From a virus, in the IMG/VR virus record IMGVR_UViG_3300047319_000185, positions 48,631-112,630 of that record: 64,000 nt of DNA, one strand, 5' to 3'. Made by a program: the position numbers and the translations under genes. The notes below the pieces were generated by a model. It was not told the DNA's origin. It worked only from the letters and a program-made list of their open reading frames with translations, and did no database searches. Shown here piece after piece: positions 29,916 to 53,602 of this stretch. Position 1 is the first letter of the stretch. Every line of letters begins with the position of its first letter.

Positions 29916-30143
29916 TTACAGTACCACGGTTACTTCGTTGATGTCAACCCTACCGATAAGAAGTTCACCAGAACGAAGAGACGCTGTATGGATGCTTACC
30001 TGGTCCCTGACTGGCTCTGTGTGATCCCAGACTATGTTGTAGTGGCCCATGTTGTCAAGCAGTTGTTCTGTGACCTCCATGTGACCGCCCATGTGGTGAA
30101 GGGCTACAACAAGGAGTCTAGCCAGAAGCTGTTCCTGTGTCAA
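29916..30143 (-). CDS. Hypothetical protein
   Basis: AAGGAG RBS. Confidence 0.55.
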   Translation of the reverse strand: MTQEQLLARLLVVALHHMGGHMEVTEQLLDNMGHYNIVWDHTEPVRDQVSIHTASLRSGELLIGRVDINEVTVVL

Positions 30144-30145
30144 GG

Positions 30146-30343
30146 TCAGCTCTCCTTTGAAAGACGGGAGATGGTTTCCTTGAGGTGACCGTTGGCTTCC
30201 AGTAGCTCCTGTACGTGATTCTTTGCCACCTCTGAGGCTACTAGAGCTATCTCATCGACAAACCGTTCACTGTCAGCATCATCGGGTCTTATACGGGCAA
30301 CCAGAGCTTCGTAGATATCATCGTAAATTAGATTTCTTTGCAT
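30146..30343 (-). CDS. Hypothetical protein
   Basis: ORF in operon. Confidence 0.55.
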   Translation of the reverse strand: MQRNLIYDDIYEALVARIRPDDADSERFVDEIALVASEVAKNHVQELLEANGHLKETISRLSKES

Positions 30344-30553
30344 TTAAATCTCCGGGTAATGTGCATCTTCACCAAAGGGTGCCATAACTACAAGAGCATT
30401 TTGGTTAATGTTATCGACCAGAGCCTCTAGTACTGAACGAATGTAGACGGTGATTCCCAGACCCTTCTTATCTGCTTCCTTCTTCAGTACCGCAAGAGTA
30501 TCCTTGTGAAGCCGTAGGCTTCTGGATACCATCGCTGTGCTTGTGTTCTCCAT
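30344..30553 (-). CDS. Ribbon-helix-helix DNA-binding protein
   Basis: RSLRLHKDTLAVLKKEADKKGLGITVYIRSVL. Confidence 0.7.
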   Translation of the reverse strand: MENTSTAMVSRSLRLHKDTLAVLKKEADKKGLGITVYIRSVLEALVDNINQNALVVMAPFGEDAHYPEI

Positions 30554-30610
30554 ATGGTTCTCCTTATTGTAAAGTTCTGTAAAAAGTAGTGTATCACAGA
30601 CTTTTACCAA

Positions 30611-30960
30611 AGGAAACCAACAAGATCATCCTGGAACAACTACTACCAGAAGAGAAAAAGACATAAAGATCACCAGATGGATTAGTTTATTACCGGATGA
30701 TAGTAACAGAAGAGTTTTATTCTACTAGTTCTATTCTTTTAGTACTAGTCTCTTCTGGTAAGTTATTTTATTCTCTTAGTAGATTAGTTTTATACTAGTA
30801 ATCTTCTAGTTATTTTCTTATAGAAGTTCTTTACTATAAGATTCTATTCTCTTGGTAACTTTTTCTTCTACTAGACTTTTACTCTTCTAGTCTGTAAGCT
30901 TTTAGTCCGAAGGACTTATATACAGACTATGTCTTGTCTTTGTGTCCTGCTCGCTCCTGT
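30611..30960. other. AT-rich, strand-biased non-coding region (candidate origin)
   Basis: No ORF; repeated CTAG/TAGT words; sits at the strand-switch point. Confidence 0.4.
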
Positions 30961-31260
30961 CCAGCTTACCATACGGTTCCAAATCTGTAAAGTCACTTGG
31001 TAGGTTGTCATGGGGTACGTTCTCTGGTAGAGTATCCTTTAAGGGAGAACTGGTGGGGGTAACCAGCAAATAGAGAAGGTCACGTATGAAGAACTACAGC
31101 ATAGCAAACATGGATATCGGTAAGAAGGGTCCATGCATGGTTCCTGGTCATCCTAAAGAGCATGTACTGGACATGGCCTGTTGGTCAACCATGCGCAGAT
31201 TCCTGCACGACAATTCATTCCAGGCTTTCCTGGATGAGGTAAACAGAAAGAAGTAAGGAT

Positions 31261-31671
31261 ATGGGACGAAAGAATCAGAGTTCCTACTATTCCAAACCTA
31301 TTGCACGGATACATGCTGACTTCGGTGGTATCTGTGCATTGTGCGGAAATTTTGTAGAACTCTCTGATGCGTCCCGCGACCATATAATCCCCCGCTCAAA
31401 AGGCGGGGGTAATGGCCGGGACAATATACAGCTTACTCATAAGAGCTGTAACAACCTCAAGGGTGATATAAGTTACCCTGTCGACTGGCAAGAGCAGCTT
31501 AAGCGGGATATGGTAATACCAAAGGGCTATCAATGCCGTTACTGCTCACAGGAGATAAACAAGCAGCACAAGGACTACCAGTATGTGGCAAAGGTGATCG
31601 TACAAGGAAAGATCGTAGCCCTTCATACCTGGTGCAATGAGGAGAGGATAAAATATGGAAAGCAGCTATAG
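31261..31671 (+). CDS. HNH endonuclease
   Basis: CALCG..SRDHIIPRSKGG.N..DNIQLTHKSCNNLKG. Confidence 0.88.
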   Translation: MGRKNQSSYYSKPIARIHADFGGICALCGNFVELSDASRDHIIPRSKGGGNGRDNIQLTHKSCNNLKGDISYPVDWQEQLKRDMVIPKGYQCRYCSQEINKQHKDYQYVAKVIVQGKIVALHTWCNEERIKYGKQL

Positions 31672-31859
31672 ACGGAGAACCTTATGAAGAAGACTAATAG
31701 AAGACCTCGTATTAAAGATCCGCTTATTCTTAACAACCCTGATGTACTTGGTTATATATGCGCCAAGTGTCAGGGAGGAATGCACAAGTTCTGTAGTGCC
31801 AAGGGTGGTAAGACTAAATTAGGCTGTGTATGTCCTGACAAGAGCCATGAGAGAAAATA

Positions 31860-32273
31860 ATGACAGGATTCTGGGAAGACGGAAATTACGGTATGGATTT
31901 TCTGGCTGCACGAAATAAAGCAGATGCCAAGAAGGCAGAAGCGGCCAGAAAGACCAAATGGGAGATAGAAGAGGAACAGCGCAATAAGCTAGCCGCTGCT
32001 CTCTGGAAGAACGAGATGCATCCTGGCAGAGACCACTGTAGTAGCTGTTTTGGTGAGTTTGAATACGGCAGTGGCGTAATGATGGATGGCTACTGCTGTT
32101 GCAAGGACAACGGAATTACCGGAGTCGTTCAGCCACTTGACGATTATGACTATCGTGTCAAATATCCACCAGTAAATGGAAAGGTCCCCGAAATATTCGA
32201 AAAGTGGGGACCAAGAACACAGGAACGATACCTGAAGAGATTCGAAGGAGAACTAAATGAGCTGGGTAAGTAA
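31860..32273 (+). CDS. Hypothetical protein
   Basis: ORF with Cys cluster. Confidence 0.6.
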   Translation: MTGFWEDGNYGMDFLAARNKADAKKAEAARKTKWEIEEEQRNKLAAALWKNEMHPGRDHCSSCFGEFEYGSGVMMDGYCCCKDNGITGVVQPLDDYDYRVKYPPVNGKVPEIFEKWGPRTQERYLKRFEGELNELGK

Positions 32274-32589
32274 CGCTGTCGTCTTTATTCCCTGCGGGGA
32301 AAAGGACAAGGACAGGCTTGATGAAGTAAATGCCGCTCTGGTAGGACAGGGTAAATACAATCAGGAATTCATAGCATCCACTGATCTGTCTGTAGGTACA
32401 GAATGGTACGGCGGGCATAAGTGTATGGAAATGGATATGTGGGCCGCAGCATTCAACTACATAGGTCTGGAAAGAGTACTGGAAGCCCTGGAAGCGGCTG
32501 ACTGGAAGTACCCACAAGGAGTTGTACTGATGTGGGCCGACCAGGAAGACACATTCTGGTCCGTACATAAGCTAGGAGAGATCAGATAA
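32257..32589 (+). CDS. Hypothetical protein
   Basis: GG.K.ME..W.AAFNY family pattern. Confidence 0.65.
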   Translation: MSWVSNAVVFIPCGEKDKDRLDEVNAALVGQGKYNQEFIASTDLSVGTEWYGGHKCMEMDMWAAAFNYIGLERVLEALEAADWKYPQGVVLMWADQEDTFWSVHKLGEIR

Positions 32590-32933
32590 TGTGCGGGATG
32601 TGCAGTGATGTCGTTGACGGATGTGACCAGGTAGAGTGCGGAGCACTACCAAGAATCAGGGAAGACGGAACTCGTAGAAACCACTATATGCGCTGGTTCA
32701 CCTTTGATGATGTCTTCTGCAAGCACAAAGAAGAGAAATACGGAACCACTAATCCCAGTCTTGCCAGCCATGTTGAAATAGAGCACGACTGGGATACCGA
32801 AGACATAGATTATTCAGAGGCAGTAGGTAATCCTCTTATCTGTGATGACTTGTGCATTATGAACGGATGGTACAAGGTAATAGAAGTAAAGAATGTTGTC
32901 GAAGCACTGAGAAGGAGCAATAATGGAGCCTAA
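32589..32933 (+). CDS. Hypothetical protein
   Basis: Translationally coupled ORF. Confidence 0.6.
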   Translation: MCGMCSDVVDGCDQVECGALPRIREDGTRRNHYMRWFTFDDVFCKHKEEKYGTTNPSLASHVEIEHDWDTEDIDYSEAVGNPLICDDLCIMNGWYKVIEVKNVVEALRRSNNGA

Positions 32934-33456
32934 TCCGATACTGCTACTGGACGTTGACGGGCCATTAAATCCATTCGCGGCCAAGGCTACACAGAGACCA
33001 GATGGCTATGAGACCCACAGAATGCGCCCTAATGGCTTTCTTATGCAGAATGCACTTAGAGTATGGCTTAATCCTCTGCACGGTGAGAAGCTCCTGAACC
33101 TCGGCTACGACCTTGTATGGGCAACCATGTGGGAAGACGAAGCCAATGAGTGGATCGCGCCGCATATAGGCCTTCCTGAGCTTCCTTTCATCAGTTTCAA
33201 GCACGCCAGCTGGTACGACAGGGACGGTCTGTACGTCAAGACGAAGACTATTGCCAGTTTCATGAACGAAGAGTATGCTGGGGTACCGTTCATCTGGGTT
33301 GATGACGAGACAACTGCTGCTGATACCAACTATCTGAGGCAGAACTGTCCTGTAAGGTCAAAGATTTTCACTATCAACCCGAGAATTGGGCTAATGGACC
33401 GAGATTTTGATGAAATCCGAGTATACAAGGCAAAACTAATGAGATGGAGCAGCTAA
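32923..33456 (+). CDS. HAD-family phosphatase (RNA-repair Swiss-army-knife type)
   Basis: LLDVDGPLN, WATMW, WVDDE and GL motifs. Confidence 0.85.
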   Translation: MEPNPILLLDVDGPLNPFAAKATQRPDGYETHRMRPNGFLMQNALRVWLNPLHGEKLLNLGYDLVWATMWEDEANEWIAPHIGLPELPFISFKHASWYDRDGLYVKTKTIASFMNEEYAGVPFIWVDDETTAADTNYLRQNCPVRSKIFTINPRIGLMDRDFDEIRVYKAKLMRWSS

Positions 33457-33457
33457 A

Positions 33458-33637
33458 ATGAAGTTTTTCAAGTCAAAAGACGAGTGTCCACCCGGTTATA
33501 CGATTCTATGTGTGGACAATCCCGTTGCCAATACAACCAGATACCAGATTCTCTTCAAGGGAAAAGATACAGGATGGTCTGGTACTGATGTGAATGCTGC
33601 TTTGCGTGAGGCTAAGAAGATGGCAAGAAATAAGTAA
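33458..33637 (+). CDS. Small protein, paralog of 33666-33863
   Basis: Manually read; CPPGY..Y.I.FKGKDTGW. Confidence 0.65.
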   Translation: MKFFKSKDECPPGYTILCVDNPVANTTRYQILFKGKDTGWSGTDVNAALREAKKMARNK

Positions 33638-33665
33638 CTAACAGACTAGATAAGGAGAGCCAAAA

Positions 33666-33863
33666 ATGGGATTCAACAACTGGCTCAAGACAAGAGGAGC
33701 CTGTCCACCAGGTTATGAGATAAAATACCTGGCCAACGACAGTGCAGGAAGGACCGAATACCGTATCTTCTTCAAGGGGAAAGACACAGGCTGGGCAGGA
33801 TTGGATGAAAAGGTAGCTATTCGTGCTATGAAGGACATGGCAAGAAACAACAAGTTCAAGTAA
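33666..33863 (+). CDS. Small protein, paralog of 33458-33637
   Basis: CPPGY..Y.I.FKGKDTGW; AAGGAG RBS. Confidence 0.65.
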   Translation: MGFNNWLKTRGACPPGYEIKYLANDSAGRTEYRIFFKGKDTGWAGLDEKVAIRAMKDMARNNKFK

Positions 33864-34049
33864 TCATGGCCAAAGAGAACCTGGACATGGCGTATAAGGG
33901 CTACCGTATCTACTACGGTGGTCCTATATACGGAATCTGTGTAAATAATCCCCAAGGTATCCGCGTAGTCATCGATACCAATGTAAGAACTGCCAAGATA
34001 CTCATCAAGGCCTTTATAAAGGAGGGTAAATGACTGGGGAATCTGCGAT

Positions 34050-34655
34050 ATGAGATATACGTACGACACAGAATTCATTGACGATGGTGAGCGTATTGAA
34101 TTACTGAGTATCGGTATTGTCGCTGAAGACGGTAGAGAATACTATGCTGTAACCAGTGATCCAAAAGTTATTGATAGAGCATGGCGTACCCTGAGCGGAG
34201 GAGAGTACTGGTTGAGAAAGAATGTACTGAACAGTTTTCCGATCAAGCAGGGACCAATTACCTTTACGCAGAACAATTGGGCACCGAACGACTCCCATCC
34301 CGACTGGGATAAAAGACGTACCCGAGAAGAAATGGCCAGAGAAGTCACCACCTTCCTCAGATATGAGACAGACATTGAACTTTGGGCATGGTATGCAGCA
34401 TATGACCACGTTGCTTTTTCCCAGTTGTTCGGGAAGATGATTGACCTTCCTCTCGGCTTTCCCATGTACACCAATGACATAAAGCAGGAGCACAGAAGAC
34501 TGGGCTATCCAAGAATTCCAGAACAGGCTCAGGGGGCACACAACGCCCTGGAAGACGCCAGATGGAACATGGATACCCTGCACTACCTAGAGGCCCTAGA
34601 AAGCCCCAAAGAATCGGTTCTAGCGGCAAATCCTAAGAGAACGAGAGTCTGGTAG
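34050..34655 (+). CDS. DEDDh 3'-5' exoribonuclease (Rv2179c/RNase AS-like)
   Basis: YDTEF, LLSIGIVAEDGREYYAV, AYDHV and HNALEDARW. Confidence 0.9.
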   Translation: MRYTYDTEFIDDGERIELLSIGIVAEDGREYYAVTSDPKVIDRAWRTLSGGEYWLRKNVLNSFPIKQGPITFTQNNWAPNDSHPDWDKRRTREEMAREVTTFLRYETDIELWAWYAAYDHVAFSQLFGKMIDLPLGFPMYTNDIKQEHRRLGYPRIPEQAQGAHNALEDARWNMDTLHYLEALESPKESVLAANPKRTRVW

Positions 34656-35050
34656 ATGGAGGATATCTATGGCTAAAGACGGACACAGACCAAAACGTAT
34701 GAAGAGCAACGCAGGTACCGACAACGTCAAGACAACATGTGAGCACTGCATCAATGGTGACCACCACAGGTGTACCAGCACTTCCACAAGGGGAATGGTG
34801 AAATGCCTGTGTGCCAATTTCTACCACAAGCTGTATGAGGAGTAGCCATGGAGGAAGCTGCGCTATGAAGGAGACTTCATCGTGAAAGGCAAGAAGCACA
34901 ATCCTTCCAATACAGTAAAAGACATATGGAGATGCCAGAACTGTCTTAAGGAAAAGCACCAGCACTGTCTGCGCTATGACAAAGGCTTCCCCTGTTACTG
35001 CATGGTCAACAATCATCTACTGGCCCATAAATAAACGGAGGAGGTATTAT

Positions 35051-35245
35051 ATGGCTCCATTCAAAAAAGGTCAGATACAGGTGGAGTCATTCGAGACCTC
35101 CGACAAAGCCTGGAGAGCCCTTACCAAGAAATATGCAGAACTACTCAATACTCCTAGATACAAGGATGCAAAAGCAGCCGGATATACATTGGGAGTAATA
35201 AAGTCAAAAGGACTCTACTGGGTCGTGGTTAATCCACCTAGGTAG
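35051..35245 (+). CDS. Hypothetical protein
   Basis: GGAGG RBS. Confidence 0.55.
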   Translation: MAPFKKGQIQVESFETSDKAWRALTKKYAELLNTPRYKDAKAAGYTLGVIKSKGLYWVVVNPPR

Positions 35246-35247
35246 AA

Positions 35248-35288
35248 AGAAGCTCTCTTTCCTTATACAAGGATTGAGGGCTTCTTTT
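35248..35288 (+). terminator. Intrinsic terminator
   Basis: AGAAGCTCTC..GAGGGCTTCT followed by TTT. Confidence 0.65.
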
Positions 35289-35289
35289 A

Positions 35290-35470
35290 TTTCAGATACT
35301 ACCTTATATTCAGGATACTATTTCGTTCCTTCGTCACGAAAATAGATACTATATAGATTTTATAGATACTGTACTACATAGGAGTCCCTAATCATAATCG
35401 GAAAACAGATACTACCCCTTATTTCAGATACTTACCTTGTACAGATCACCATTTCATAATCGGGAAACCA
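35290..35470 (+). repeat. Cluster of AGATACT and CATAATCGG direct repeats
   Basis: AGATACT at 35294, 35344, 35364, 35407 and 35426, GGATACT at 35313; CATAATCGG at 35393 and 35455. Confidence 0.7.
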
Positions 35471-36535
35471 GGCAGGTACCCATTCTGCCCACTAACTTTT
35501 AAAGGTGGGGGTACGAATTCATTACATTCATTGGTCGAACTATGTCATATTATTACGCTGAGTAATGGCATTCACAACTTATTCACATCTATTTGATTCA
35601 AACACGGGTTATTAGGGGTAACATGAACAACAGGTGAACAGAATTATATACAGAGAGTAATAATTAGCCCTATGGATAACCATTTATAGCCCTTGAATGG
35701 CCATAATCAGGGGATACTAGGGTGAATTGGTTGACAAAGGGAGAGGGGTGTGTCCTGGTATTGGGTACCAGAGGGTTTGTCAATAGTTGGTGCTGTACTG
35801 TTTAGTCACATCACGCTGTGTTATTCGGACATAAGGTGTGGTTTGGTGTCTATGGGATATGTGCAGATGCATTGATCAGACCATCGCAGGTGAGAGTATG
35901 TGCCAGTAGTGGTCTAGTCCTCATAGGTACATTGGTCTAGTCATCTACGCACAGTGAAAATCGTCTGTACAGCCCTGTGAGAGGTGAGCTGGATAGAGAG
36001 GACGTTGAGTACCAAAGGATCATGTTAGAGGGGCCAAAGAATGGATTCATGGCCATACTTGTGAGTACTCTTGTCTCTCTATGTATCTATGGTGTATATC
36101 GCTACGCTCTCCTGCGCTTCGCTTGGCCCCGAAATTTCCTGAGGGGAGTGTGTTGGGTCACAGGTGTGCATCGGCATAACGGACATACAGGGATAGTATG
36201 GGCGCGTAGCCACTAGCTTTGGTATCGAGTTGGTAACATCCTGGGATGAGGCTTTGACACGCTTCCCTACGTAGACAAGTGTGTGTCTCGCAAGGCAGCG
36301 GGGCGAACGGGAGACAGGCTGTAGCGGCCGGTTGAACGGATCGCACGACCCGCTGAGAGTCGCCAACTGAATAGCTCGCCATTCCTCACCGAACGGGCAG
36401 GGGCCGGATTAGCGACCGGTCAGCCCTTAGTAGGTCCCCGTGGTGAGTGGAGATCAAATGCTTAGTTCGATGCAACTTCCCGCATATGATGCGCGTCATT
36501 GTGTGTGGGTTGTTGGACCTAGCTAGGGAGAGACC

Positions 36536-36793
36536 ATGAGCAACAAAGCAGAGCGCAAGGCAATCGAGCGGCAGATCATCAACAATTACAAGGACATGAA
36601 GCTGATCCTCAAAGAGGCAGGCATGTCGCTTGACACCGACTGGAGTTACTGGCCGTTGGGTGCAAAGTGCGTTCACGCTGCCTATGCGGCACTGGGAATC
36701 GGTGTGGCATACAACCTGGGCATGGGTCAGTACAGCTATGACAGGTGCGAGCGTGTCATCAACGGACTCCAATACAGTACGGAGCTGATCTGA
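36536..36793 (+). CDS. Early hypothetical protein
   Basis: GGAG RBS; GC3-rich codons. Confidence 0.7.
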   Translation: MSNKAERKAIERQIINNYKDMKLILKEAGMSLDTDWSYWPLGAKCVHAAYAALGIGVAYNLGMGQYSYDRCERVINGLQYSTELI

Positions 36794-36962
36794 TCATGAT
36801 CCTTGTTGAACTGACCAGGGAACAGCGCAAGTTCATCGCAGAGGCCACTCAGACCCGTATGGATGCCATTCTGGCGAAGGACAGCAACGCATGGACCACA
36901 AGCGAGTATGCGGAGCTGGAAAGCCTTATGACGCAGTTGTATGTGGACTGCGCCGAATAGTA

Positions 36963-37034
36963 CTGACCTAGACCCGAAACGCTCTGTATGGAGCGTCTAG
37001 CCCTAGTGGAGGGCTACTGACGATGGGTCGTCAG
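36963..37034 (+). ncRNA. Type II hammerhead ribozyme
   Basis: GACCC-GAAA-CGCTC/GAGCG-TC^TAGCCC/GGGCTA-CTGACGA-T-GGGTC. Confidence 0.88.
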
Positions 37035-37053
37035 GGAACAGAGGAGACAGACC

Positions 37054-37872
37054 ATGATCTACACCAGCAAGCACATCGGCGACAATGGCAGCAAGTCCAA
37101 GGTTCACGCGATGCCCGATGACAGTGTTGACGGGCACAAGGCGAAGTGCGGTCGCAAGGTGCAGTGGCTCAACAATGGTCTGTATGGCACTGACCATGAG
37201 ATCACCTGTCTCCCCTGCATCAAGGTCATGGAGCGTGAGGAGCGTAAGGCGAACACTGACAAGTTCATCGCCGAGTCGGATGCCCGCTTGGCTGCTGCGG
37301 GTATTAGCACTGAGGGAGAGAACATGCGCATTGTCGGCATTCAGAACTACAGCGGTGAGAACGTGTTCACCTGTACCAACTGTGTTGCCAGTAGCTCATG
37401 GGCACGGGATGTGTTCATGGGTGAGGATGTCGTGTGCTGCACATGTGGTGAGATGCTCGGTTATGCGGCTGATTTCAGCGCCGCGATTCGGGAGGACAAG
37501 GGTCGCAAGCTTGTTGCTGAAGAGGACCGTTGGTACATGCTGGACAAGGCTCATGGAGAGGCACTGAAGATGAACAGTGATCTGTACATGCTGGCGCTGG
37601 CAGAGCGTCATGAGACCATCACGGACAACCGGCTTTACCACACTCCGCTGAATCGCTGGGAATACCACATTCGCGGCCTGTACGTCTCTCTGCAAGCCAT
37701 TCCGGTTATCGACTGGGTTTGCTACAGGGTGACTAAGTCGGGCAATCCCAGTAAGTCATACGAGACATACGACCTTGTGGACGCCATTGCCACGTATGAG
37801 GCCATGATCGGTGAGCACATGCACTGGCTTGAGGTCGACAGGCTTGACCGTGAGTGGCACTACTCGCACTAG
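37054..37872 (+). CDS. Early protein with Zn-finger motifs
   Basis: H..CG..CLPC, CTNC and CTCG motifs; AGGAG RBS. Confidence 0.75.
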   Translation: MIYTSKHIGDNGSKSKVHAMPDDSVDGHKAKCGRKVQWLNNGLYGTDHEITCLPCIKVMEREERKANTDKFIAESDARLAAAGISTEGENMRIVGIQNYSGENVFTCTNCVASSSWARDVFMGEDVVCCTCGEMLGYAADFSAAIREDKGRKLVAEEDRWYMLDKAHGEALKMNSDLYMLALAERHETITDNRLYHTPLNRWEYHIRGLYVSLQAIPVIDWVCYRVTKSGNPSKSYETYDLVDAIATYEAMIGEHMHWLEVDRLDREWHYSH

Positions 37873-37977
37873 ACAGACTTACCCCTTCCCTGCCTCTGAG
37901 CGGCGTTCTGAGCGCTTCTCAGGGGATGGGTGGGAGTATGTCCCAACTGTGTTGTTCGATCTTGTTAGGAGACAACT

Positions 37978-38451
37978 GTGTCCCTCTACACTGTCCGCTC
38001 GCGTGTCAGCCTCACTGGTAAGCCCATTCTGTCCAGCAAAATGGATGAGCAGGACCCTGCCAACATGCCCGTGCCGCTCGAATTCAAGAGTGCGATGGAA
38101 ATGCTGCACTGGTCACTAGCTAATGGTGTATTCGGTCGTGAGTTCTACGCCAATCGCTCTCCCCGCACTCCTGAGGAGATCCGTCTCCGTGATGGAGGGG
38201 ACGAATGGCGTGCCTATCGGGTAAGCGGTGACTGGCCTAAGTGGGAGCTGACCAACGAGAACTATGACGCCATGGTGAGTGCTGCCAAGCGTTACCGTGC
38301 GATCCTCCACTACTTCCGCGAGATTGAGCCTGAGTGGACGTACGTGGAAACCATTCACTACGCGGACAACAGCACCATGGTTTACGAGATCAATCGCAAT
38401 GGACAGATGCGCTCGCACATGACTGTCTCTCCGCACGGTGACATCTGCTAG
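37978..38451 (+). CDS. Early hypothetical protein
   Basis: AGGAG RBS. Confidence 0.7.
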   Translation: MSLYTVRSRVSLTGKPILSSKMDEQDPANMPVPLEFKSAMEMLHWSLANGVFGREFYANRSPRTPEEIRLRDGGDEWRAYRVSGDWPKWELTNENYDAMVSAAKRYRAILHYFREIEPEWTYVETIHYADNSTMVYEINRNGQMRSHMTVSPHGDIC

Positions 38452-38547
38452 TAACAGAACTCTTTGGGCATTCTCAGACTCTCTGAGTGTGTCCATGGGG
38501 GATTGTTGCCCCGACCCTGTTTCAACGTCGCAGAGGAGCACACAGCC

Positions 38548-38847
38548 ATGAACAACGCTGCCGCATTCCGCATGCTTGAGGGACGTCTCTCCGCACATGT
38601 CCAGCGGTTCAACGGCTATGACGTGAGCGCCAATGACTCCGATGAGCAGTATTTCCTTACCACGGAGAAACTGGCACTTGCCAAGGCTGCATTGGAGAGT
38701 GCCCCGGCATTCAAGGTCACGACGCTTGCCCGTTCGTTGGGTGATATCTACCGGACTGTCAAGCACAGCATGAGCGCTGCTGACCTCAAGCGCTGGAATG
38801 AGATCAATGAGACGTTGGAAGCTCTCTCGGACAAGTACGAGGGATAG
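38548..38847 (+). CDS. Early hypothetical protein
   Basis: GAGGAG RBS. Confidence 0.7.
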   Translation: MNNAAAFRMLEGRLSAHVQRFNGYDVSANDSDEQYFLTTEKLALAKAALESAPAFKVTTLARSLGDIYRTVKHSMSAADLKRWNEINETLEALSDKYEG

Positions 38848-38906
38848 CAGCGGAAACGTCAGCCAAGACAGCACAACAACACACAGCCGTCATGAAAGGA
38901 CACCTC

Positions 38907-40304
38907 ATGTCTGTCACCACGCTCGCTGCCGAGGAACTCACCGCCATGCTGTCCAGGATGACCTATTCCATGATCGGCAAGGGAAAGGCTATCCACCTGT
39001 CCAAGGCAGGAACCACCATGTGTGGCAAGTCTGTGGACCTGTACACAGTGAATCCGGCAGACTACCCCGCTTATGACATCTGCAAGCGGTGCATGGTCAC
39101 TGCTGAGAAGAACTACCGCATGGAGCGCAAGATTTCCTACGGTGTCATGCGTGACCAGGAATTGGACCGTATGACCTACGGTGGAAAGCCTTTCACTAAG
39201 GCTGAAGAGAACGCTGCAATTGAGGACGCGATGCAGTATGCGGGAAGGACTACGAATGCAAATATCGCCATTCTCACCGCAGACGGATTCGTTGAGTGCA
39301 CTCCCGAAATTCTGGAGAGCGCGCTGAATGGGCTTGTCACACCTAAGCGTGCCTGCGAGTGCTGCGGTACGGAGACAGAAGACTTCGGCGCTCCTGAGGT
39401 ACTCATGTGTGAGCCGTGTGAGGAGCGCCACTGTGAGGCTGATGGACAGTGCTCCTCCGGTGATGCTGATTGGGACCCTGAGATTCAGGTGATGCGTCAG
39501 TTGTTCCCTGAGTATTCCGATGAGCAGATTCGGGAGATTCTCGACCGTCCCGAATTCTCTTACCCGAATGAGAACGACTATGAGGATGCAGATGCATTCG
39601 AGTCGGGAATTCGGAATGCGAATGACACAGCGCGGGAAGAGGGATTCGCTATCTCTTCCCCTGAGTGGCTGGACTGCTTTCAGCGTTCCTATGAGTCCAT
39701 GCACATTGAGAATGAGGACCGACGCATCAATGCCGCATTTGAGGCAGAACAAGATGCCGAATTGACTGCACTTGACGCTGAGTACGACCGTCAGCAGCAC
39801 AACCCCATGGATGAGCGGCACGAGGAATATCTTGTGACCTATCCCTACATGGTTGGGGAGAATCTCGTGTACGCGTGCTGTGAGTCCGAAATCGGTCCTG
39901 TCTGTGAGCATCTGCGTGATGTGTCTGAGGAGTGGCACGTATTCGCCATGGGTGAATGGCACTCCATGATGTACGAGGGTTACGCGCCGATCTGCATTCT
40001 CATTGACGGTATTTACCAGGATGTTGATTATCGTCATCACGCTGGCGATTGCAACAACATGTGTGTCCTGGGTGATGAGACTCCGATGGAAGACACCATG
40101 AATGCTCCCGAAATGGTGGAGGCGCGTCTGTCCATTGAGGTTGACGGAATCACGGTTGATCTCGGATTCCACACATTCGAGATTCCCCCGCTGTGTGAGA
40201 AGTCCATTGCGACTCTCTACGGAGAGAAGTATGGGGAATGGAAGCGTCCCGGCATCGTTGAGTGGGATGACGTGCTGACTGTCACAGAGCAGTACGCACT
40301 TTAG
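38907..40304 (+). CDS. Large acidic early protein with Zn-finger motifs
   Basis: GAAAGGA RBS; very Asp/Glu-rich; CxxC pairs. Confidence 0.75.
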   Translation: MSVTTLAAEELTAMLSRMTYSMIGKGKAIHLSKAGTTMCGKSVDLYTVNPADYPAYDICKRCMVTAEKNYRMERKISYGVMRDQELDRMTYGGKPFTKAEENAAIEDAMQYAGRTTNANIAILTADGFVECTPEILESALNGLVTPKRACECCGTETEDFGAPEVLMCEPCEERHCEADGQCSSGDADWDPEIQVMRQLFPEYSDEQIREILDRPEFSYPNENDYEDADAFESGIRNANDTAREEGFAISSPEWLDCFQRSYESMHIENEDRRINAAFEAEQDAELTALDAEYDRQQHNPMDERHEEYLVTYPYMVGENLVYACCESEIGPVCEHLRDVSEEWHVFAMGEWHSMMYEGYAPICILIDGIYQDVDYRHHAGDCNNMCVLGDETPMEDTMNAPEMVEARLSIEVDGITVDLGFHTFEIPPLCEKSIATLYGEKYGEWKRPGIVEWDDVLTVTEQYAL

Positions 40305-40395
40305 AACGCCCGTAACAGCCCCTCTGCCGCTTGTACAGGGTGGAGGGGTCCCGTTGGTCCAACCACACAGTTTGATCTTGTCAGAGAGGCATACA

Positions 40396-40767
40396 ATGCA
40401 GTTCATCGTTACGGCACACCCTGAGGCATTCACTGATGTTGATGCCGCGCAGCAGTTCGCCGCGAATTTGGTCCGGGACACAGGAGAGACTCTCTATGTC
40501 CTTCCTGTCGGTAATCGGATGCCAGGTTTCAAGGTTGAGAACGTCGGAATCATGGTGACGTTGGAAGAGGGAGAGGAGACTGAGCAGACAGAGCAGGAAT
40601 GGCAAAAGGAATTCGCCTCTGCTCTGGCAGTCGATATGAAGTTTGGTGGTGTGCCCAAGGCACGTGCTGTCAGGCTTTACCGTGATGCATTCCATTGCAG
40701 CCTTGCAGAGTCGCTTATGGCGATTGACATTGCAATCGGGGAACTGAATGCAGGAGAGGACATCTGA
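40396..40767 (+). CDS. Early hypothetical protein
   Basis: GAGG RBS; C-terminal KARAVRLYR...SLAES resembles the L7/L12 C-terminal motif. Confidence 0.65.
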   Translation: MQFIVTAHPEAFTDVDAAQQFAANLVRDTGETLYVLPVGNRMPGFKVENVGIMVTLEEGEETEQTEQEWQKEFASALAVDMKFGGVPKARAVRLYRDAFHCSLAESLMAIDIAIGELNAGEDI

Positions 40768-41381
40768 TGGATGAACAGGACTATTGGGACAGCGTCCATG
40801 CCGAACAGGACGATAACGATTATTGGGGTGAGATGGACGCTGAAGCGGTATACGCAGAGGAAATGGAAATGCTGAATCGTCACGTTGCCAATTGCACAAA
40901 GGCAGAACGTGACGAATACTGCAAGATCTGCATGGAGTACTGACATGTGGAATATGTGTACATGTAGGTCTCGCCGAATTCGTGGGTGGCGAAGTGTCCG
41001 TTGCTCCTACTTGGCTGACCATGTCCAGAGAAGCAAGTGGCACTGCGACAACACAAATACTGGCTACATTTGGCTAGTGCGAAAGAGATAGAACAGATCT
41101 GTATGCCTTTAGGGGTGCTGTAGGGCTTTCTGAGAGCCTCGCAGCATCTCTATGGACAGACAGTCCAGCCATAGCCTGAAACAGCCTGAGAGGGGCCGTT
41201 GTGTTCGTTCTGATGTTCATCTCGTCATTCAGCTTGGCCAGTGCTTACTACATCGGCCGTAACCACGGAAGGCAGGGGAAATGAATCCAGTACTGGAGTC
41301 TGTCCTGTATTACCTGGGCGCATGTGCAGTGACAGCGATCCTGTGGATTATCGGTGTGGCTCTGATCAAGAGGAGCGGGAA

Positions 41382-41621
41382 ATGAATGCGTGGATTTACG
41401 ACGGATTCAAAGACCAGTATTTCTATGTGTGGGAGGGATTCACTGGCTACGTACGTGAGAACCCTGATCACACGTGGTCTGCCTGTGTGTGGTTGGGTGA
41501 CGAGAAGATCAGCCTCAGCCATCCCAAAGAGTCCATGACAGAGGCCATGGTGTACGCTGGTGATGCCATGTGGGATTGGCAGAGCCAGTCTGAGAGGATG
41601 ATGTCTCGGCTGTACGTCTGA
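41382..41621 (+). CDS. Early hypothetical protein
   Basis: GAGGAG RBS. Confidence 0.6.
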   Translation: MNAWIYDGFKDQYFYVWEGFTGYVRENPDHTWSACVWLGDEKISLSHPKESMTEAMVYAGDAMWDWQSQSERMMSRLYV

Positions 41622-41630: not shown

Positions 41631-41659
41631 TTGACCAGAAGATGAAAGTTTGGTAGTCT
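41631..41659 (+). promoter_or_regulatory. Early promoter
   Basis: TTGACC-17-TAGTCT. Confidence 0.6.
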
Positions 41660-41826
41660 CTGGTATGTCGAAGCATTACCGTCGAAAAGCAGTTAAGTAC
41701 TAAAAAACAAGATAGAGAGTTAGGGTTAAATGACTAAACCTTAACTCTCTATTTCTGTTTATCTTTTCTTTTAAATTAAGAGAAAAACTCTTAATTTAAA
41801 TCAGAGGGTAAATAGGAGGAGAAAAG

Positions 41827-42024
41827 ATGTATTCCTGTTACATTCATTACGATAGTGGAAGAACCTCTAAACTGACTGAAATTGACAAGTTGGATGTTGA
41901 TAAGATTATCTACAGTAAAGAGAACACTCAAATCATCACACAGCATTCTCCCAATGGAGATATAACTGTTATTGATATGAGTAAGGTTTACCTGATTGAA
42001 TTTCTCTGGGAGGAAAAGAAGTAG
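41827..42024 (+). CDS. Hypothetical protein (AT-rich)
   Basis: AGGAGG RBS. Confidence 0.6.
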   Translation: MYSCYIHYDSGRTSKLTEIDKLDVDKIIYSKENTQIITQHSPNGDITVIDMSKVYLIEFLWEEKK

Positions 42025-42260
42025 TGAAAAACTATAAGGTAAAGATTTATCTTAGTGATTTCTCTTTTACCATAACAGCAACCCTTAGTACAGAAGGAAT
42101 AAGCCAACTACTTGATGCCATTTACAGTAACAGGACTAGTAAATGGAGAAAGAAGACAACCTTTACTGTTACATCCTCTGGTAGTGATCCCAGTTTTTCA
42201 TTTCCTCTGGCAAATGTTTGTCTGATTGAGTTCTCTGAAGTTGTTGAAGGAGAGAAGTAA
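42024..42260 (+). CDS. Hypothetical protein (AT-rich)
   Basis: Coupled ORF; V.LIEF ending like the previous gene. Confidence 0.6.
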   Translation: MKNYKVKIYLSDFSFTITATLSTEGISQLLDAIYSNRTSKWRKKTTFTVTSSGSDPSFSFPLANVCLIEFSEVVEGEK

Positions 42261-42469
42261 TGAGTACTGAAATTCCTGAGATTCCGTCATTTCCTCTGGA
42301 TTTGAACGAATTCGAGATAGCAACTCTGTTGGATGCTCTTATTGAGTATCGCAATAAGGTTGGTTATGAGGAAGAGAGCAAGTACAACTACCGGGTACTC
42401 AGGCTATACACTAAGGTTCGTAAGTTCCGTCGACTGACTCGTGAAATGGAAACTAATGAAAATGGGTGA
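42260..42469 (+). CDS. Hypothetical protein
   Basis: Coupled ORF. Confidence 0.6.
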   Translation: MSTEIPEIPSFPLDLNEFEIATLLDALIEYRNKVGYEEESKYNYRVLRLYTKVRKFRRLTREMETNENG

Positions 42470-42689
42470 CATTCCTGTTCCTCTGGTTCTCACAAGGGAT
42501 CAGATCAGGTTGATCCGTGGTGCTCTGTTTGTCATCAATGACTCCTGCTTTAATTGGACCGTTGATATTGTCAAGGACATTGCAGAGGTTGTTGAACTGA
42601 TCGATCATGCCGAAGACAGGGCAACAATCAACAACGCCAAGTTGGTAAAGCCTACACTCTGGCAAGAGATCATTGACTCACTCGCTTAG
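42441..42689 (+). CDS. Hypothetical protein
   Basis: Overlapping downstream ORF; start uncertain. Confidence 0.55.
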   Translation: MKWKLMKMGDIPVPLVLTRDQIRLIRGALFVINDSCFNWTVDIVKDIAEVVELIDHAEDRATINNAKLVKPTLWQEIIDSLA

Positions 42690-42829
42690 CCCTACCGCTA
42701 GACCCTAAAGACCCTCTAGAACGGCTAGAAATGGCCTCTAGAGGGTCTTTGGCGTTACGGGTGGACTCCAGGACCAACTGAGGTCTGTGAGGCTCTCAGA
42801 GAGGCCGTAGAATCAGTTTGGTTCAGGAC

Positions 42830-42858
42830 TTGACCTCCCTGCGGTCGGCAGGTAGTGT
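42830..42858 (+). promoter_or_regulatory. Early promoter
   Basis: TTGACC-17-TAGTGT. Confidence 0.6.
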
Positions 42859-42990
42859 TCTGGTTGTAGGGAAGAACACGGCGGGACAGAGAGTCTAGTA
42901 ACACTTTGTTCTAGTGGCTGCTTACCTTCTACAGGGACTGGCTAAATACCTCTCTGTAGCGGGTAAGGAACTACTAGTGGAGGAGTAGTA

Positions 42991-43293
42991 ATGCAGATTG
43001 TCTATCGCAACAAGGTTGACCACGTCTCGCATGATGTGGTTGACTCTCAGGTATGGCACTGGGAAGAGGGTGGAGAGATCATCTCTGACGCTGTTGCTCA
43101 GACTATTGCGTCATGGTGGCACTATCCAAGCTCTCCGAACAGCACTGCACTCAGTACGATGGGTGCTGTGACTGTGGACATGCACATCAGGGATTTTGCT
43201 GATGTAGGTGAGTATCTGTCGGCAGGCGAAGCGGACGCTCTTGAACTTGACGCGCTTGAGGCATACATTGTCTCAAAGCAGGATGACGAGTAA
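42991..43293 (+). CDS. Acidic hypothetical protein
   Basis: GGAGGAG RBS. Confidence 0.7.
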   Translation: MQIVYRNKVDHVSHDVVDSQVWHWEEGGEIISDAVAQTIASWWHYPSSPNSTALSTMGAVTVDMHIRDFADVGEYLSAGEADALELDALEAYIVSKQDDE

Positions 43294-43365
43294 TTCGGTT
43301 GAATTTCCTATTAGGGATATCTTAGGAATTCCTAATAGGTTATTCGGTGAATTACCGACAAAGAT

Positions 43366-44034
43366 ATGAGGAGAATTATGTCTTACGAAAGTGCATCTGT
43401 CATTAGTGCTGCTGAGTATCTTGACGAGTACTGCGAATTCGGTAACTGGCGCGATAAGGTCAACCTCAAGACTCTGCGTATGTCTAGTATGACTGACTGC
43501 ATTCTGGGCCAGGTTTACGGTGACTACAACGTGGCTGAGGCTGTTCTTAATCGGGCCTCTAGTGATGACGAGTGGGACAACGTTTCGGAGGCTTTCGAGT
43601 CTTTCCAGGATGCATGGATTGAGTATCTGAAGCCTTTCCAGAAGGATTACCTTGTCACGGGTTCTGAGTGGATTTATCAGAACATCAATGGACAGAATCC
43701 TGTTCGGCTGCATCACACTGTCATGCTTGGAACTGTTAATTATGTAGTGTTCTCGCATGTGGGCCAGGAAATGCAGATTAGGACTGAGGCTGCTTTCCGC
43801 AAGACTTTCAAGCCTAAGCCTGAGATTGTCTACGTTGAGGGACAGCTTTATATTGGTAAGGACAAGGCTGTGCTTATGTATGGTGCCAAGATTTACTATG
43901 GCAAGCCAGGATTCTACTACCTCAATGACACTCTCTACGGTAGTCTAGAGTACTTTGAGAAGGAGCATGGTCCTCTTAAGCCCATTGAGGCAGTGAAGAA
44001 TGACGGTAAGCCTGTTATTGCCAAGATTGGTTAA
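43366..44034 (+). CDS. Hypothetical protein
   Basis: LD..W...L.M....CILGQVYG.Y pattern. Confidence 0.7.
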   Translation: MRRIMSYESASVISAAEYLDEYCEFGNWRDKVNLKTLRMSSMTDCILGQVYGDYNVAEAVLNRASSDDEWDNVSEAFESFQDAWIEYLKPFQKDYLVTGSEWIYQNINGQNPVRLHHTVMLGTVNYVVFSHVGQEMQIRTEAAFRKTFKPKPEIVYVEGQLYIGKDKAVLMYGAKIYYGKPGFYYLNDTLYGSLEYFEKEHGPLKPIEAVKNDGKPVIAKIG

Positions 44035-44119
44035 TTGCACCTGAGTTGTCATAGGAAATCACTTCGTTGTGCGGAGTGTGTTCCTATGATTTCTCTGGCC
44101 CAATTAATCAGGGAGAATA

Positions 44120-44458
44120 ATGAGAATCAGCATGGAAATTCCCGATACCCTTGTTACTGTGGCAGATGTCACGAATCACAAGGGAAATCCTGAGAGCATC
44201 ATTGCAGTACTGGGTATTCCTCTCCTGTATTTCAATGGTGCTGGAGAGCGTAAGTACAACGAGGCAAATCCTGAGTATGACTGGCGCAGGGATAACAGTG
44301 ATTGGGAGGAGCACGTGAAGTATGTGCTTGCCCGAACCATCACAAAGCTTTTGTTGGCAGATGAGACTATAGCTGATAACTTTCAGCTTGAACCCGTATG
44401 CGGTCGGGAGATCAGCTACAATCCGTCGATTGAGTATGTTCGAGAGGACAACAACTGA
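44120..44458 (+). CDS. Hypothetical protein
   Basis: GGAG RBS. Confidence 0.65.
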   Translation: MRISMEIPDTLVTVADVTNHKGNPESIIAVLGIPLLYFNGAGERKYNEANPEYDWRRDNSDWEEHVKYVLARTITKLLLADETIADNFQLEPVCGREISYNPSIEYVREDNN

Positions 44459-44859
44459 TGTACAAGTTCACTGCTCAGGACATGGATCAGCTTTGCTCCA
44501 ATGGCGCGAATTGGGGAGAATGGGCACGCGTTCAGCAGGATGAGGATGGACGCTGGGATGTCATGGGAGAGACTGGTGAGGAAATCAACTACGATTTCAA
44601 GCACGCTCACTGGCTTGAGGACAATTGGGCGAATGTTGTGCTTGCCAAGATGTTTCTTGATCAGGAGGGTTACACCTATCAAGTTCTCTACGACAATGCA
44701 GACAACACTTCGGGGTGGTGGTTTGAGAGGCTGCACCACGTCTCAGAGCGCATCTCAGCCACTGCGGAGGGTCGGGTGGCACTCTTGGAGCTTGCAGAGA
44801 TGCTGAGGCGTCAGAACACCGGTTACGTGATTCTGACGGACTTCTCTCGCATCCGTTGA
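44458..44859 (+). CDS. Acidic hypothetical protein
   Basis: Coupled ORF. Confidence 0.65.
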   Translation: MYKFTAQDMDQLCSNGANWGEWARVQQDEDGRWDVMGETGEEINYDFKHAHWLEDNWANVVLAKMFLDQEGYTYQVLYDNADNTSGWWFERLHHVSERISATAEGRVALLELAEMLRRQNTGYVILTDFSRIR

Positions 44860-44890
44860 CAACGGACTAGGAACCAGCTAGGTTGAGGTT

Positions 44891-45193
44891 ATGGAAGAGA
44901 TCGCAGTACGTGAGTACAGGATTTGGCTTGAGACTGGTGACCTCATGGGTTGCGCCAGTATCTATAAGCGTCGTGCATGGTGGACTGTAGAACTTGATCC
45001 GTTCTTGCATACTGAGAAAGTCAGGACTAAGGGCTTCCGCAGTGAGTCCGAAGCTGATAGCTTTGCACAGGAAACAGCCGAGAGGTACATGGCTGAGGCT
45101 ATCGAGTGGGAGCGTGAGCACTGCAAGGAAATGGACTGTGAAGATGACCATGACTATGCAGAGTCCTACAGTATTCAGATAGTTGAGAGCTAG
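44891..45193 (+). CDS. Acidic hypothetical protein
   Basis: Follows a TTGACA-17-TAGGTT promoter at 44856-44884. Confidence 0.65.
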   Translation: MEEIAVREYRIWLETGDLMGCASIYKRRAWWTVELDPFLHTEKVRTKGFRSESEADSFAQETAERYMAEAIEWEREHCKEMDCEDDHDYAESYSIQIVES

Positions 45194-45274
45194 AAAGCTT
45201 TACTGATTCAGGGCTTGAAATCCTTGGATCGGTATGGTTTCCTAGACACAGGAAACAGACCAGAGGGAGTTAAG

Positions 45275-45535
45275 ATGACTGAGCTTGAAATGATGACGCG
45301 CGTTGCTGTTCACCCGCTTGTCGTTAAGTACCGTGGCATGGTTGATGCCTATCGGAAGCGCATGGTTGAGCAGTACGGTGAGGGTTTCGATGGAGAGTGG
45401 ACTGACGTGCATACTCCGGACAACCGTGGATTCACTGTCATGACTGAGGCACAGCGTGCTGAGTACAACAGTCTCCATGAGCGCACTGCGCGTGTCCGCG
45501 CCTCTGTCCGTCGCACTCTGTTCCCCACTTCCTAA
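45275..45535 (+). CDS. Hypothetical protein
   Basis: GGAG RBS. Confidence 0.65.
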   Translation: MTELEMMTRVAVHPLVVKYRGMVDAYRKRMVEQYGEGFDGEWTDVHTPDNRGFTVMTEAQRAEYNSLHERTARVRASVRRTLFPTS

Positions 45536-45558
45536 TAACGTCTTAGAAAGGCATTCTC

Positions 45559-45768
45559 ATGGATTTCACTACCTTTCCCCGATCTGACTCTGCCTACTCC
45601 GTTGTCATTAAGCGGGGAGAGCTTGAGTATGTGAGCTTCGGAAGTGTCTTCAATCTGACTAAGCGTGCGGCTGGACAGTTGACCCGTTCGCTTGCTAAGG
45701 TGGACACGCGGTACAAGAGCGCAAGGGTTCTCAAGAACACTACGGTTCGAAAGGCTGGTTTGCTCTAA
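45559..45768 (+). CDS. Basic hypothetical protein
   Basis: GAAAGG RBS. Confidence 0.6.
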   Translation: MDFTTFPRSDSAYSVVIKRGELEYVSFGSVFNLTKRAAGQLTRSLAKVDTRYKSARVLKNTTVRKAGLL

Positions 45769-46005
45769 TGCGTGGCAAGTATCAGAGTGTAAAGAAGCGC
45801 AAGGCAAAGCTTTACCAGGGTCGGCAGCACGACTTTGACAAGGAGTATCGCCAGACCGGAAGGCGACGCTTCGTGGACCCTAAGTACGTTCACATGACGC
45901 ACAGTGACTTGGAAAGTGTAGACCTTACTAGTTGACTTTTCTCCGACACAGGCTATAGGTTGGTCTGTGTCAGGGGATGGAACACCTAGTCAGAAGGAGC
46001 AAGGA

Positions 46006-46332
46006 ATGTCCCACAAGTTTGAGAACGAGTTTGCTGAGGCTCTGTATGAGCGAAGCCTCAACGGTTTTCATGATGACAGTCTCGGTGACTGTGTCGACTT
46101 CGGTTGGTACGGTCTGTTCCTCAAGGACCACGCGATTCTCAGCGAGAACAACCACGGTTTTGTCACTGTCTCCCGCTTTGACAGTGCTGAGGCAACCGAG
46201 GACGCGTGGGATGAGCTGACCGGAGAGTATGAAGAGTTTGAGGATGAAGCGGAAGAGTCCTTTTATGAGGGTTACGGTCAGTATGATGATGACACTTACG
46301 ACAATGACTCTGATCTGATGAATGAGTACTGA
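46006..46332 (+). CDS. Highly acidic protein (candidate DNA mimic)
   Basis: D/E-rich C-terminal half; own TTGACT-18-TAGGTT promoter. Confidence 0.7.
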   Translation: MSHKFENEFAEALYERSLNGFHDDSLGDCVDFGWYGLFLKDHAILSENNHGFVTVSRFDSAEATEDAWDELTGEYEEFEDEAEESFYEGYGQYDDDTYDNDSDLMNEY

Positions 46333-46448
46333 GAACTAGTGGCTTGACGCACAAAGTGCTCTAGTGGCTTGACAGGGTCAGCCTGCCTGTGTAGGTTGGT
46401 CCTATCAGGTTCCTAGCTAAGTAGGAGCCAAGACAGAGAGGCAAGACT

Positions 46449-47105: not shown

Positions 47106-47166
47106 TCAGCTTTAATCGTCTACCGGAAACGGTAGGCGGTTATGGCCTACTAGTTGGAGGAAGTAA

Positions 47167-47376
47167 ATGCGTTCTGGTGATGGTTTCGCTCTTGGTTTTC
47201 TCGCACTATTCCTTATCGTAATGACTGGTCTCATTTCTGGTGAGGTGACTCATGAGAATGACCAGCACACAGCATTCAAGCTGAAGTGTGGTCAGTCGAA
47301 TGGAACAGTGACAGAGACTCGCAACACTGATTTCTGTTTCAATGGCAATGTCCTTCTGTTCAAGATGGACTACTGA
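47167..47376 (+). CDS. Small membrane protein (paralog 1)
   Basis: N-terminal TM + C...G...C motif. Confidence 0.65.
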   Translation: MRSGDGFALGFLALFLIVMTGLISGEVTHENDQHTAFKLKCGQSNGTVTETRNTDFCFNGNVLLFKMDY

Positions 47377-47384
47377 GGAGAGAA

Positions 47385-47672: not shown

Positions 47673-47674
47673 AA

Positions 47675-47878: not shown

Positions 47879-47884
47879 AACAAA

Positions 47885-53594: not shown

Positions 53595-53602
53595 AGTTCT
53601 CC

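Follow-up and report, generated by a model that had tools for sequence, protein, structure and literature searches.

The 64,000-nt stretch of viral DNA analyzed here (the window) carries a 72-nt type II hammerhead ribozyme motif on its plus strand, lodged between an open reading frame (ORF) for a 54-aa protein and a gene for a 272-aa protein. The source genome is that of an uncultured, BRock-like phage of the Streptomyces type; its large terminase is 78-86% identical to that of a dozen uncultured ~111-kb phages and ~79% identical to that of the Streptomyces phages BRock, Alone3, LuckySocke, GiJojo, and pSt2308. The 3' end of the ribozyme falls 6 nt before GAGGAG and 19 nt before the ATG at 37054. 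These boundaries, with a TAG on the upstream side and the GAGGAG on the other, agree with the initial annotation, which had set the element between genes and just 5' of the ribosome-binding site (RBS) of the 37054 gene. The parts of the element and its neighbors are collected in Table 1.

Table 1. Coordinates of the hammerhead element, its parts, and the adjoining gene signals in the window
Feature	Position	Strand	Remark
Upstream 54-aa ORF	36796-36960	+	Stop TAG 36958-60, 2 nt before the ribozyme
Hammerhead element	36963-37034	+	Sense orientation, intergenic
Outer stem II, 5' strand CUGAC	36963-36967	+	Pairs with GUCAG 37030-34
3-nt bulge CUA in extended stem II	36968-36970	+	
Inner stem II GACCC, numbering 11.5-11.1	36971-36975	+	Pairs with GGGUC 37025-29
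Core G12, A13, A14 (GAA)	36976-36978	+	Invariant in all aligned homologs
Stem III hairpin	36979-36996	+	A15.1-U16.1 (A36979-T36996) plus 5 bp CGCUC/GAGCG
C17, end of GUC triplet 36995-97	36997	+	Predicted scissile bond 36997/36998
Stem I hairpin, 7 bp	36998-37016	+	UAGCCCU 36998-37004 / AGGGCUA 37010-16
Catalytic box C3-U4-G5-A6-C7-G8-A9 (CUGACGA)	37017-37023	+	
Extra U between A9 and G10.1	37024	+	Insertion in the Rfam model alignment
Stem II 3' strands, inner GGGUC and outer GUCAG	37025-37034	+	
Alternative 7-bp hairpin CUGACGA/UCGUCAG, loop UGGG	37017-37034	+	Predicted; excludes stem II
Shine-Dalgarno and start codon of the 272-aa ORF (37054-37872)	37041-37056	+	GAGGAG 37041-46, ATG 37054-56

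Searches of Pfam and PHROGs returned no match for the upstream 54-aa and 85-aa proteins or for the downstream 272-aa protein. Likewise, a blastn search of 50,697 phage records with 36400-37900 as the query was negative, and IMG/VR searches with the back-translated flanking proteins (n = 2) did not find relatives. A homolog of the 54-aa ORF lies upstream of the ribozyme in an uncultured relative, G003 (41% amino acid identity), and in a metagenome contig, L245 (79% nucleotide identity); another relative, G001, has a homolog of the ORF and lacks the ribozyme. A 22-nt blastn match in the Gordonia phages Aflac and Figliar runs antisense within a coding sequence and was set aside as chance. The initiation regions of the 85-aa gene (36528-45) and the 272-aa gene (37046-63) are 83% alike, reading GAGAGACC-ATG-A and GACAGACC-ATG-A, respectively.

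Generic sigma-70 promoter and terminator scans of 30000-41500 gave results at chance level only, and a U-tract terminator was not found at the element. The Streptomyces-type promoter motif TTGAC-N16-19-TAGNNT occurs 15 times on the two strands of the window against 2.8 expected (0/100 shuffles). Eight plus strand copies span 41631-54888 and two minus strand copies (30029-30143) head the tRNA array; the N17 form, TTGAC-N17-TAGNNT, has zero plus strand copies in 30200-41600, and neither scan yielded a promoter for the message that holds the ribozyme. The array holds 25 tRNAs, and a match to the tRNA-Sec model within it (19824-19905, minus strand) scores 38.6 bits, below the cut-off of 47, and may represent a tRNA with a long variable arm instead of a selenocysteine tRNA.

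Upstream of the ribozyme, a stretch with few convincing ORFs extends from 35245 to 36536. Immediately after the ORF ending at 35245 comes a hairpin with 19-nt arms (35246-87), and the sequence beyond it (within 35246-35700) is AT-rich, with 37-38% GC compared with about 55% around it. Motifs of the AGATACTA type are repeated there (35293-319 / 35406-32, 35338-51 / 35401-14, and 35392-406 / 35454-68), and the repeat region at 35290-35470 may represent an origin with iteron-like repeats or a cluster of phage-specific promoters that heads the transcription unit of the ribozyme. Farther along, 35830-36075 shows 69-75% nucleotide identity in five relatives (G001, G002, G003, G007, and G009). A GTG-initiated ORF at 35977-36216 overlaps this segment and, over its N-terminal 41 aa (which take in a hydrophobic stretch), shares 41% identity with a frame in G003; the segment may encode a small membrane protein or a conserved RNA. 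An inverted repeat (36718-33 / 36960-75) is at chance level for its length and was discarded.

The element is arranged in the order of stem II 5' strand, GAAA, stem III hairpin, cut site, stem I hairpin, catalytic box, and stem II 3' strand. Stems I and III are capped by loops (AGUGG at 37005-09 and UGUAUG at 36985-90, respectively) while stem II is open-ended, which is the type II arrangement. The catalytic box, G12-A13-A14, the A15.1-U16.1 pair, and an N-U-H triplet (GUC) 5' of stem I are all present. The complete type II core reported by the initial annotation (CTGACGA, GAA, and GTC) is therefore read at the positions given for it, and its predicted cut after 36997 coincides with C17, which ends the GTC triplet after stem III. 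The three stems that it described all form, but it overlooked the extra U37024 after A9. While the G10.1-C11.1 pair is present (G37025-C36975), this U parts G10.1 from A9. The outer 5' strand of stem II, CUGAC, repeats the opening five bases of the box.

The extra U is found well beyond this locus. The pattern CUGAYGA-U-GG occurs at no fewer than 114 loci in IMG/VR, and most of the matches listed are type II hammerheads of the canonical form, in which stem II has 3 bp and the tail pairs with loop I; one such canonical copy with the extra U scores 67.6 bits in Rfam. Because the U is frequent in bona fide copies, including this high-scoring one, it is probably tolerated and no defect; across these sequences it is a common natural feature. 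De la Pena and Flores reportedly described, in 2001, a nucleotide insertion between A9 and G10.1 in the (+) hammerhead of the viroid CChMVd, and a U at that insertion site is said to make cleavage 3-4-fold faster. The position in the core is the same in both RNAs; however, the viroid ribozyme is of type III and its natural insertion is an A, whereas the phage ribozyme is of type II and carries a U.

Folding of 36955-37045 without constraints gave the exact hammerhead fold as the minimum free energy structure (-33.3 kcal/mol, z = -2.7). A search against Rfam matched RF02276 (Hammerhead_II) at 36972-37034 with 32.1 bits, short of the gathering score of 37, with E = 0.014 for the whole window against all 4227 Rfam families and E = 5.6e-6 for this one family over the 112,630-bp genome. 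In this comparison with the type II model, which the initial annotation had suggested, the alignment runs end to end, but the score stays below the gathering score, and a default Rfam scan is silent for this reason. In the model alignment, U37024 counts as an insertion, the catalytic box is matched to CUGAUGA, and the long stem II adds nothing to the score; the 37-bit threshold is a cut-off of the model and no property of the RNA. The whole 112.6-kb genome contains a single match of the RF02276 type.

Relatives were scanned with the Rfam model and with a second model, R1, built from five sequences of the variant subclass described below. The ribozyme is found in 3/13 complete uncultured relatives (the source genome, counted in, G003, and G007), with one copy each, and in 0/5 of the cultured phages BRock, Alone3, LuckySocke, GiJojo, and pSt2308. 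Contig L245, from a closer relative, also carries it. Comparing the window with L245, the ribozyme is 93.1% identical, the flanking ORFs 79% and 83%, and the leader 53%; the five ribozyme differences are four in loop III and one in the bulge, which reads CCA. Against G003, the ribozyme is again 93.1% identical, whereas the flanking ORFs retain 50% and 33%. The differences from G003 are one loop base and two compensatory pairs in stem I, 36999/37015 from A-U to G-C and 37000/37014 from G-C to U-G. In blastn against G003, the ribozyme (36963-37046) is the only match at the junction of the 54-aa and 272-aa ORFs, with neither flanking gene matched, and in the rest of the 6.4-kb query the matches are confined to segments well upstream.

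The copy in G007, L083, retains the pairing and the core with other stem sequences. All three of its stems differ in sequence and remain paired, and GAA, the GUC triplet, the box (as CUGAUGA), and the extra U are kept. In it, the inner stem II covaries to GAGCC/GGCUC (other copies have GGCC, GCCC, or GACC), a U-A pair of stem III covaries to C-G, and stem I is a wholly different 7-bp stem. The 11/11 conserved core residues and the A15.1-U16.1 pair are unchanged in relatives with fully altered stems, and the catalytic box is invariant in homologs except at N7 (C/U). When 117 related phage type II hammerheads (104 of them distinct) were aligned, 94.3% of the pairing cells were paired and 15/18 pairs varied on both sides, values that 0/500 shuffles reach, although this alignment was fitted to the model and is therefore biased toward structure. 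Stem III cells are 99.8% paired in the 104 distinct homologs, with the A15.1-U16.1 pair invariant. In DNA contigs from four other rhizosphere samples, the 1-kb stretch around the element has 8 variant positions, 0 of them in the ribozyme, but with only ~0.5 expected per 72 nt this absence carries no information; contigs that span the whole 1-kb stretch show 7 variant positions per run. The element has evolved under purifying selection with compensatory change. Since these substitutions match the pattern predicted for a structured catalytic RNA, comparison with relatives indicates that the hammerhead is genuine and is selected for its fold.

By its sequence traits, the copy belongs to a variant subclass that is overlooked by standard annotation. 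We assembled 22 copies of this subclass from IMG/VR, one actinobacterial metagenome-assembled genome, and metagenomes; five pattern matches in genome contigs were also considered, of which 4/5 lacked stems and were taken as chance. Members have no loop I/3'-tail pseudoknot, a 3' tail of the form (U/C)CRUCAG, and a stem II of 4-5 bp that is extended by a bulge of 2-4 nt, the last base of which is A, and usually by another helix. The outer strand CUGAC is retained in most of the members that have a 5-bp inner stem II, and all 22/22 copies sit 11-29 nt upstream of a start codon. Seven other copies score 26.7-35.5 bits in Rfam and the remainder fall under the listing threshold, so that none reaches 37. 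In the window, no pairing of 4 bp or more joins loop I to the 3' tail, as GUCAG has no complement in AGUGG; in canonical copies, UGGUC pairs with GACCA to form this pseudoknot.

The initial annotation had also proposed a tertiary contact in which the CUA bulge (36968-70) would pair with UAG of loop I (37004-06). The two trinucleotides are complementary, but U37004 belongs to the closing pair of stem I; L245 has a CCA bulge with loop I unchanged, and bulge and loop I do not covary among about 20 subclass members, so the Watson-Crick contact was abandoned. Bulges in the subclass read CUA, CCA, CAA, CGA, CGCA, or UA and loop I reads AGUGG, UAGUU, AGG, GAG, AAG, or GAA. The recurrent traits are only the final A of the bulge, beside inner stem II, and the purine-rich character of loop I, and at most these hint at a contact of the non-Watson-Crick kind. 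Natural hammerheads of other kinds have non-canonical loop-loop contacts, and a recurrent A facing a purine-rich loop would fit such a contact (PMC6155905).

Two subclass loci carry several copies in a row. L109 (IMGVR_UViG_3300047160_002917) has six hammerheads within 2.3 kb (1215-3493), each placed 11-24 nt ahead of a small ORF; the leaders of these ORFs read CAACACAACA-ATG with no Shine-Dalgarno sequence, and the array is dense, with one ribozyme per gene. L244 (Ga0163163_10003354) has three within 12046-12886 at a spacing of ~370 nt, each followed by GGGAGAGGGA and an ATG.

The 3' tail of the element has a second potential partner within the ribozyme. UCGUCAG (37028-34) and the catalytic box CUGACGA (37017-23) are exact reverse complements, a point that the initial annotation had overlooked, and the alternative hairpin of Table 1 would sequester the box. 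For the whole element, the hammerhead fold is predicted at -33.3 kcal/mol and the alternative at -30.4 kcal/mol, and the two folds lie 0-4 kcal/mol apart in other members. The predicted fold of the 3' product consists of the stem I hairpin and the alternative hairpin (-20 kcal/mol; z = -4.0 for the 39-nt piece), with the RBS and start stretch at 37041-56 unpaired. In L083, the copy in G007, the box is CUGAUGA and the tail UCAUCAG, such that the alternative hairpin is kept and the outer stem acquires a C/A mismatch, and the N7/tail combinations in the 22 subclass copies are C-G, U-A, and U-G only. The outer helix stays fixed as CUGAC/GUCAG while stems I and III drift, which fits a second pairing constraint. 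However, a single change, that in L083, tells the alternative hairpin apart from outer-stem pairing, and the conservation of the tail is partly circular because three of the subclass searches demanded the tail sequence.

Core masking does not extend to type II hammerheads at large. Among 91 distinct, unconstrained type II tails, core-complementary helices were not enriched over shuffled tails (0.26 versus 0.27), and helices of 6 bp or more were found in 5.5% of the tails versus 4.8% of the shuffled ones; after these two tests, masking by the tail was rejected as a rule for the whole family. A second type II group (L131, L145, L160, L168, and L172 in IMG/VR) combines the usual pseudoknot tail with CCAUCR a few bases downstream, which complements YGAUGG (N7-G8-A9-U-G10.1-G10.2) in a different register of possible core masking; the predicted hairpins range from -6.5 to -11 kcal/mol. 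For the long-stem-II subclass, a flip of the tail onto the box is a plausible and subclass-specific mechanism that falls short of being established, and the nearly isoenergetic alternative hairpin could equally lock the uncut RNA in an inactive form. We tentatively suggest, as a possibility with the balance of likelihood against it, that the subclass is an under-recognized three-strand switch. In it, the tail would pair either with the 5' strand that mimics the box, giving the active form, or with the box itself, and a flip after the cut or under terminating ribosomes would make cutting irreversible, release the products, form a two-hairpin cap, and possibly couple cutting to upstream translation.

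The distribution of the element is uneven, and its neighbors change. The genes downstream of the ribozyme in the window, G003, and G007 are unlike one another. In G001, the flanking genes are those of G003, and the ribozyme is replaced by an unrelated spacer of ~95 nt with small hairpins. This spacer (L205 3610-3700, minus strand) contains two hairpins, CTCG...CGAG and GGGTA...TACCC, has no Rfam match, and may form an alternative processing or stabilizing structure. In eight relatives, a scan of the corresponding site gave no match to another known ribozyme family. As judged from this distribution, the element is accessory and is gained and lost by recombination, and it is dispensable because it is absent from 10/13 complete uncultured and 5/5 cultured relatives and because G001 lacks it between the flanking genes of G003.

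We consider it likely that 36963-37034 on the plus strand is a functional type II hammerhead that cuts a polycistronic plus strand message after C36997 and so separates the fate of the 37054 message from that of the upstream genes. The most skeptical reading, that the region is no ribozyme and is merely a structured cluster of intergenic hairpins, such as an RNase III or RNase E site, with a chance resemblance to a hammerhead or a lost activity, is very improbable. It could draw on the Rfam score under the cut-off and on the alternative hairpin, which could hold the core paired, yet the 11 core residues and A15.1-U16.1 are invariant across relatives whose stems have fully changed, a plain hairpin gives no reason to conserve unpaired CUGAYGA and GAA, and a U-tract terminator is absent. 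That the RNA is active and nevertheless a dispensable passenger, spread by recombination with little or no benefit or even lowering expression of 37054, is unlikely in our judgment. The patchy occurrence among close relatives speaks for it, as do the unrelated downstream genes in the window, G003, and G007, the different hairpin-rich spacer between the same two genes in G001, and the restriction of nucleotide similarity with G003 at the 36796/37054 gene junction to 36963-37046 with the flanking genes unmatched. Where the element is present, however, its structure is clearly constrained while its flanks have diverged to 33-50%, and its position just before the RBS is constant in 22/22 copies.

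An active ribozyme might instead be a translation-sensitive or otherwise regulated switch and no constitutive processing site, a reading to which we give little credence. In that case, the 5' strand would be covered by ribosomes as they terminate at TAG 36958-60, which would favor the inactive fold, and cutting would then report translation of the upstream ORF. The two folds are indeed only ~3 kcal/mol apart here and 0-4 kcal/mol apart in other members, in the window, G003, and G007 the gap between the upstream stop codon and the 5' strand is 0-5 nt, and in G007 a TGA stop lies inside CUGAC itself; the constancy of the CUGAC/GUCAG outer helix alongside drifting stems I and III also suggests a second pairing partner. 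Against this, the argument is purely structural, tight gene packing by itself explains the closeness of the stop codons, core-masking tails lack enrichment at the population level, and a single covariation event, in L083, discriminates the alternative hairpin from the outer stem.

Under the preferred reading, constitutive processing of the message, the transcribed RNA would fold into three helices around the CUGACGA/GAA core and cut itself after C36997, the site expected by analogy with the established chemistry of the hammerhead family. The stem III hairpin and a 2',3'-cyclic phosphate would close off the upstream fragment, while the downstream fragment would begin with a 5'-OH on U36998 and the stem I hairpin, followed by ~20 unstructured nt carrying the RBS of 37054. 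In this subclass, a 10-bp bulged stem II takes the place of the usual loop I/3'-tail pseudoknot. After a type II hammerhead has cut, its products are held together by stem II alone. A 10-bp stem II would bind the products tightly, and a flip of the tail has a mechanistic rationale because the intermolecular helix would shrink from 10 bp to 3 bp. Once the tail had flipped onto the box, the products would be freed, religation would be blocked, and a second hairpin would form at the new 5' end. The 37054 message would have its 5' end 56 nt ahead of the AUG, carry one or two hairpins, and leave the RBS open, and its stability and translation would be uncoupled from the upstream genes, as by a natural insulator of the RiboJ type. 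The position of the element points to this role in message processing, and the tail flip is predicted from the folds.

Hammerheads have been known in phages since 2011, including type II hammerheads of bacteria and prophages (Perreault et al. 2011, PMC3088659). The window adds one more type II hammerhead in a phage intergenic gap, a kind already known. It shares with described members (PMC3088659, RF02276) the same permutation, core, and GUC triplet as well as a phage-intergenic, sense position before a gene. However, most of those members, though not all, have the loop I/3'-tail pseudoknot, which is absent here, and their stem II is of 2-3 bp, whereas that of the window consists of 5 + 5 bp interrupted by a bulge of 3 nt. 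Further differences are the U inserted behind A9 and a 3' tail that complements the box, and a canonical phage type II copy scores 67.6 bits in contrast to the 32.1 bits obtained here.

Phage hammerheads that flank genes have been proposed to process long transcripts (PMC3088659; PMC6765202). The clusters that flank single genes in prophages (Perreault et al. 2011, Figure 3) have the same proposed role, yielding gene-length messages; other members of the present subclass (L109 and L244) also form arrays, whereas this genome has a single copy. RiboJ, which consists of the sTRSV hammerhead and a 23-nt hairpin set ahead of an RBS, increases the levels of both transcript and protein (PMC6206723). 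Its cleavage strips away the RNA on the 5' side, so that the remaining leader is capped by a hairpin and exposes the RBS; cleavage of the phage RNA would do the same, with two 5' hairpins and a free RBS predicted for the phage message. RiboJ is, however, engineered and type III-derived, and its hairpin is a separate addition, whereas the second hairpin here would come from the catalytic strand of the ribozyme itself and is a prediction only. What hammerheads do for phages and bacteria has yet to be settled (PMC6765202, PMC6155905).

The locus has some practical value in this regard, as it offers a single, cleanly delimited element with cultured Streptomyces phage relatives that do not have the ribozyme. 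G003 and G001 form a natural pair with and without the ribozyme between the same flanking genes, and the effects of inserting or deleting it should therefore be easy to interpret. If the core-masking tail is functional, it would be a natural device for product release or against ligation, useful to ribozyme engineers. For the family, the type II threshold of Rfam systematically misses the pseudoknot-less, long-stem-II subclass, which occurs in soil, rhizosphere, and actinobacterial sequences, and counts of phage hammerheads there are therefore underestimates.
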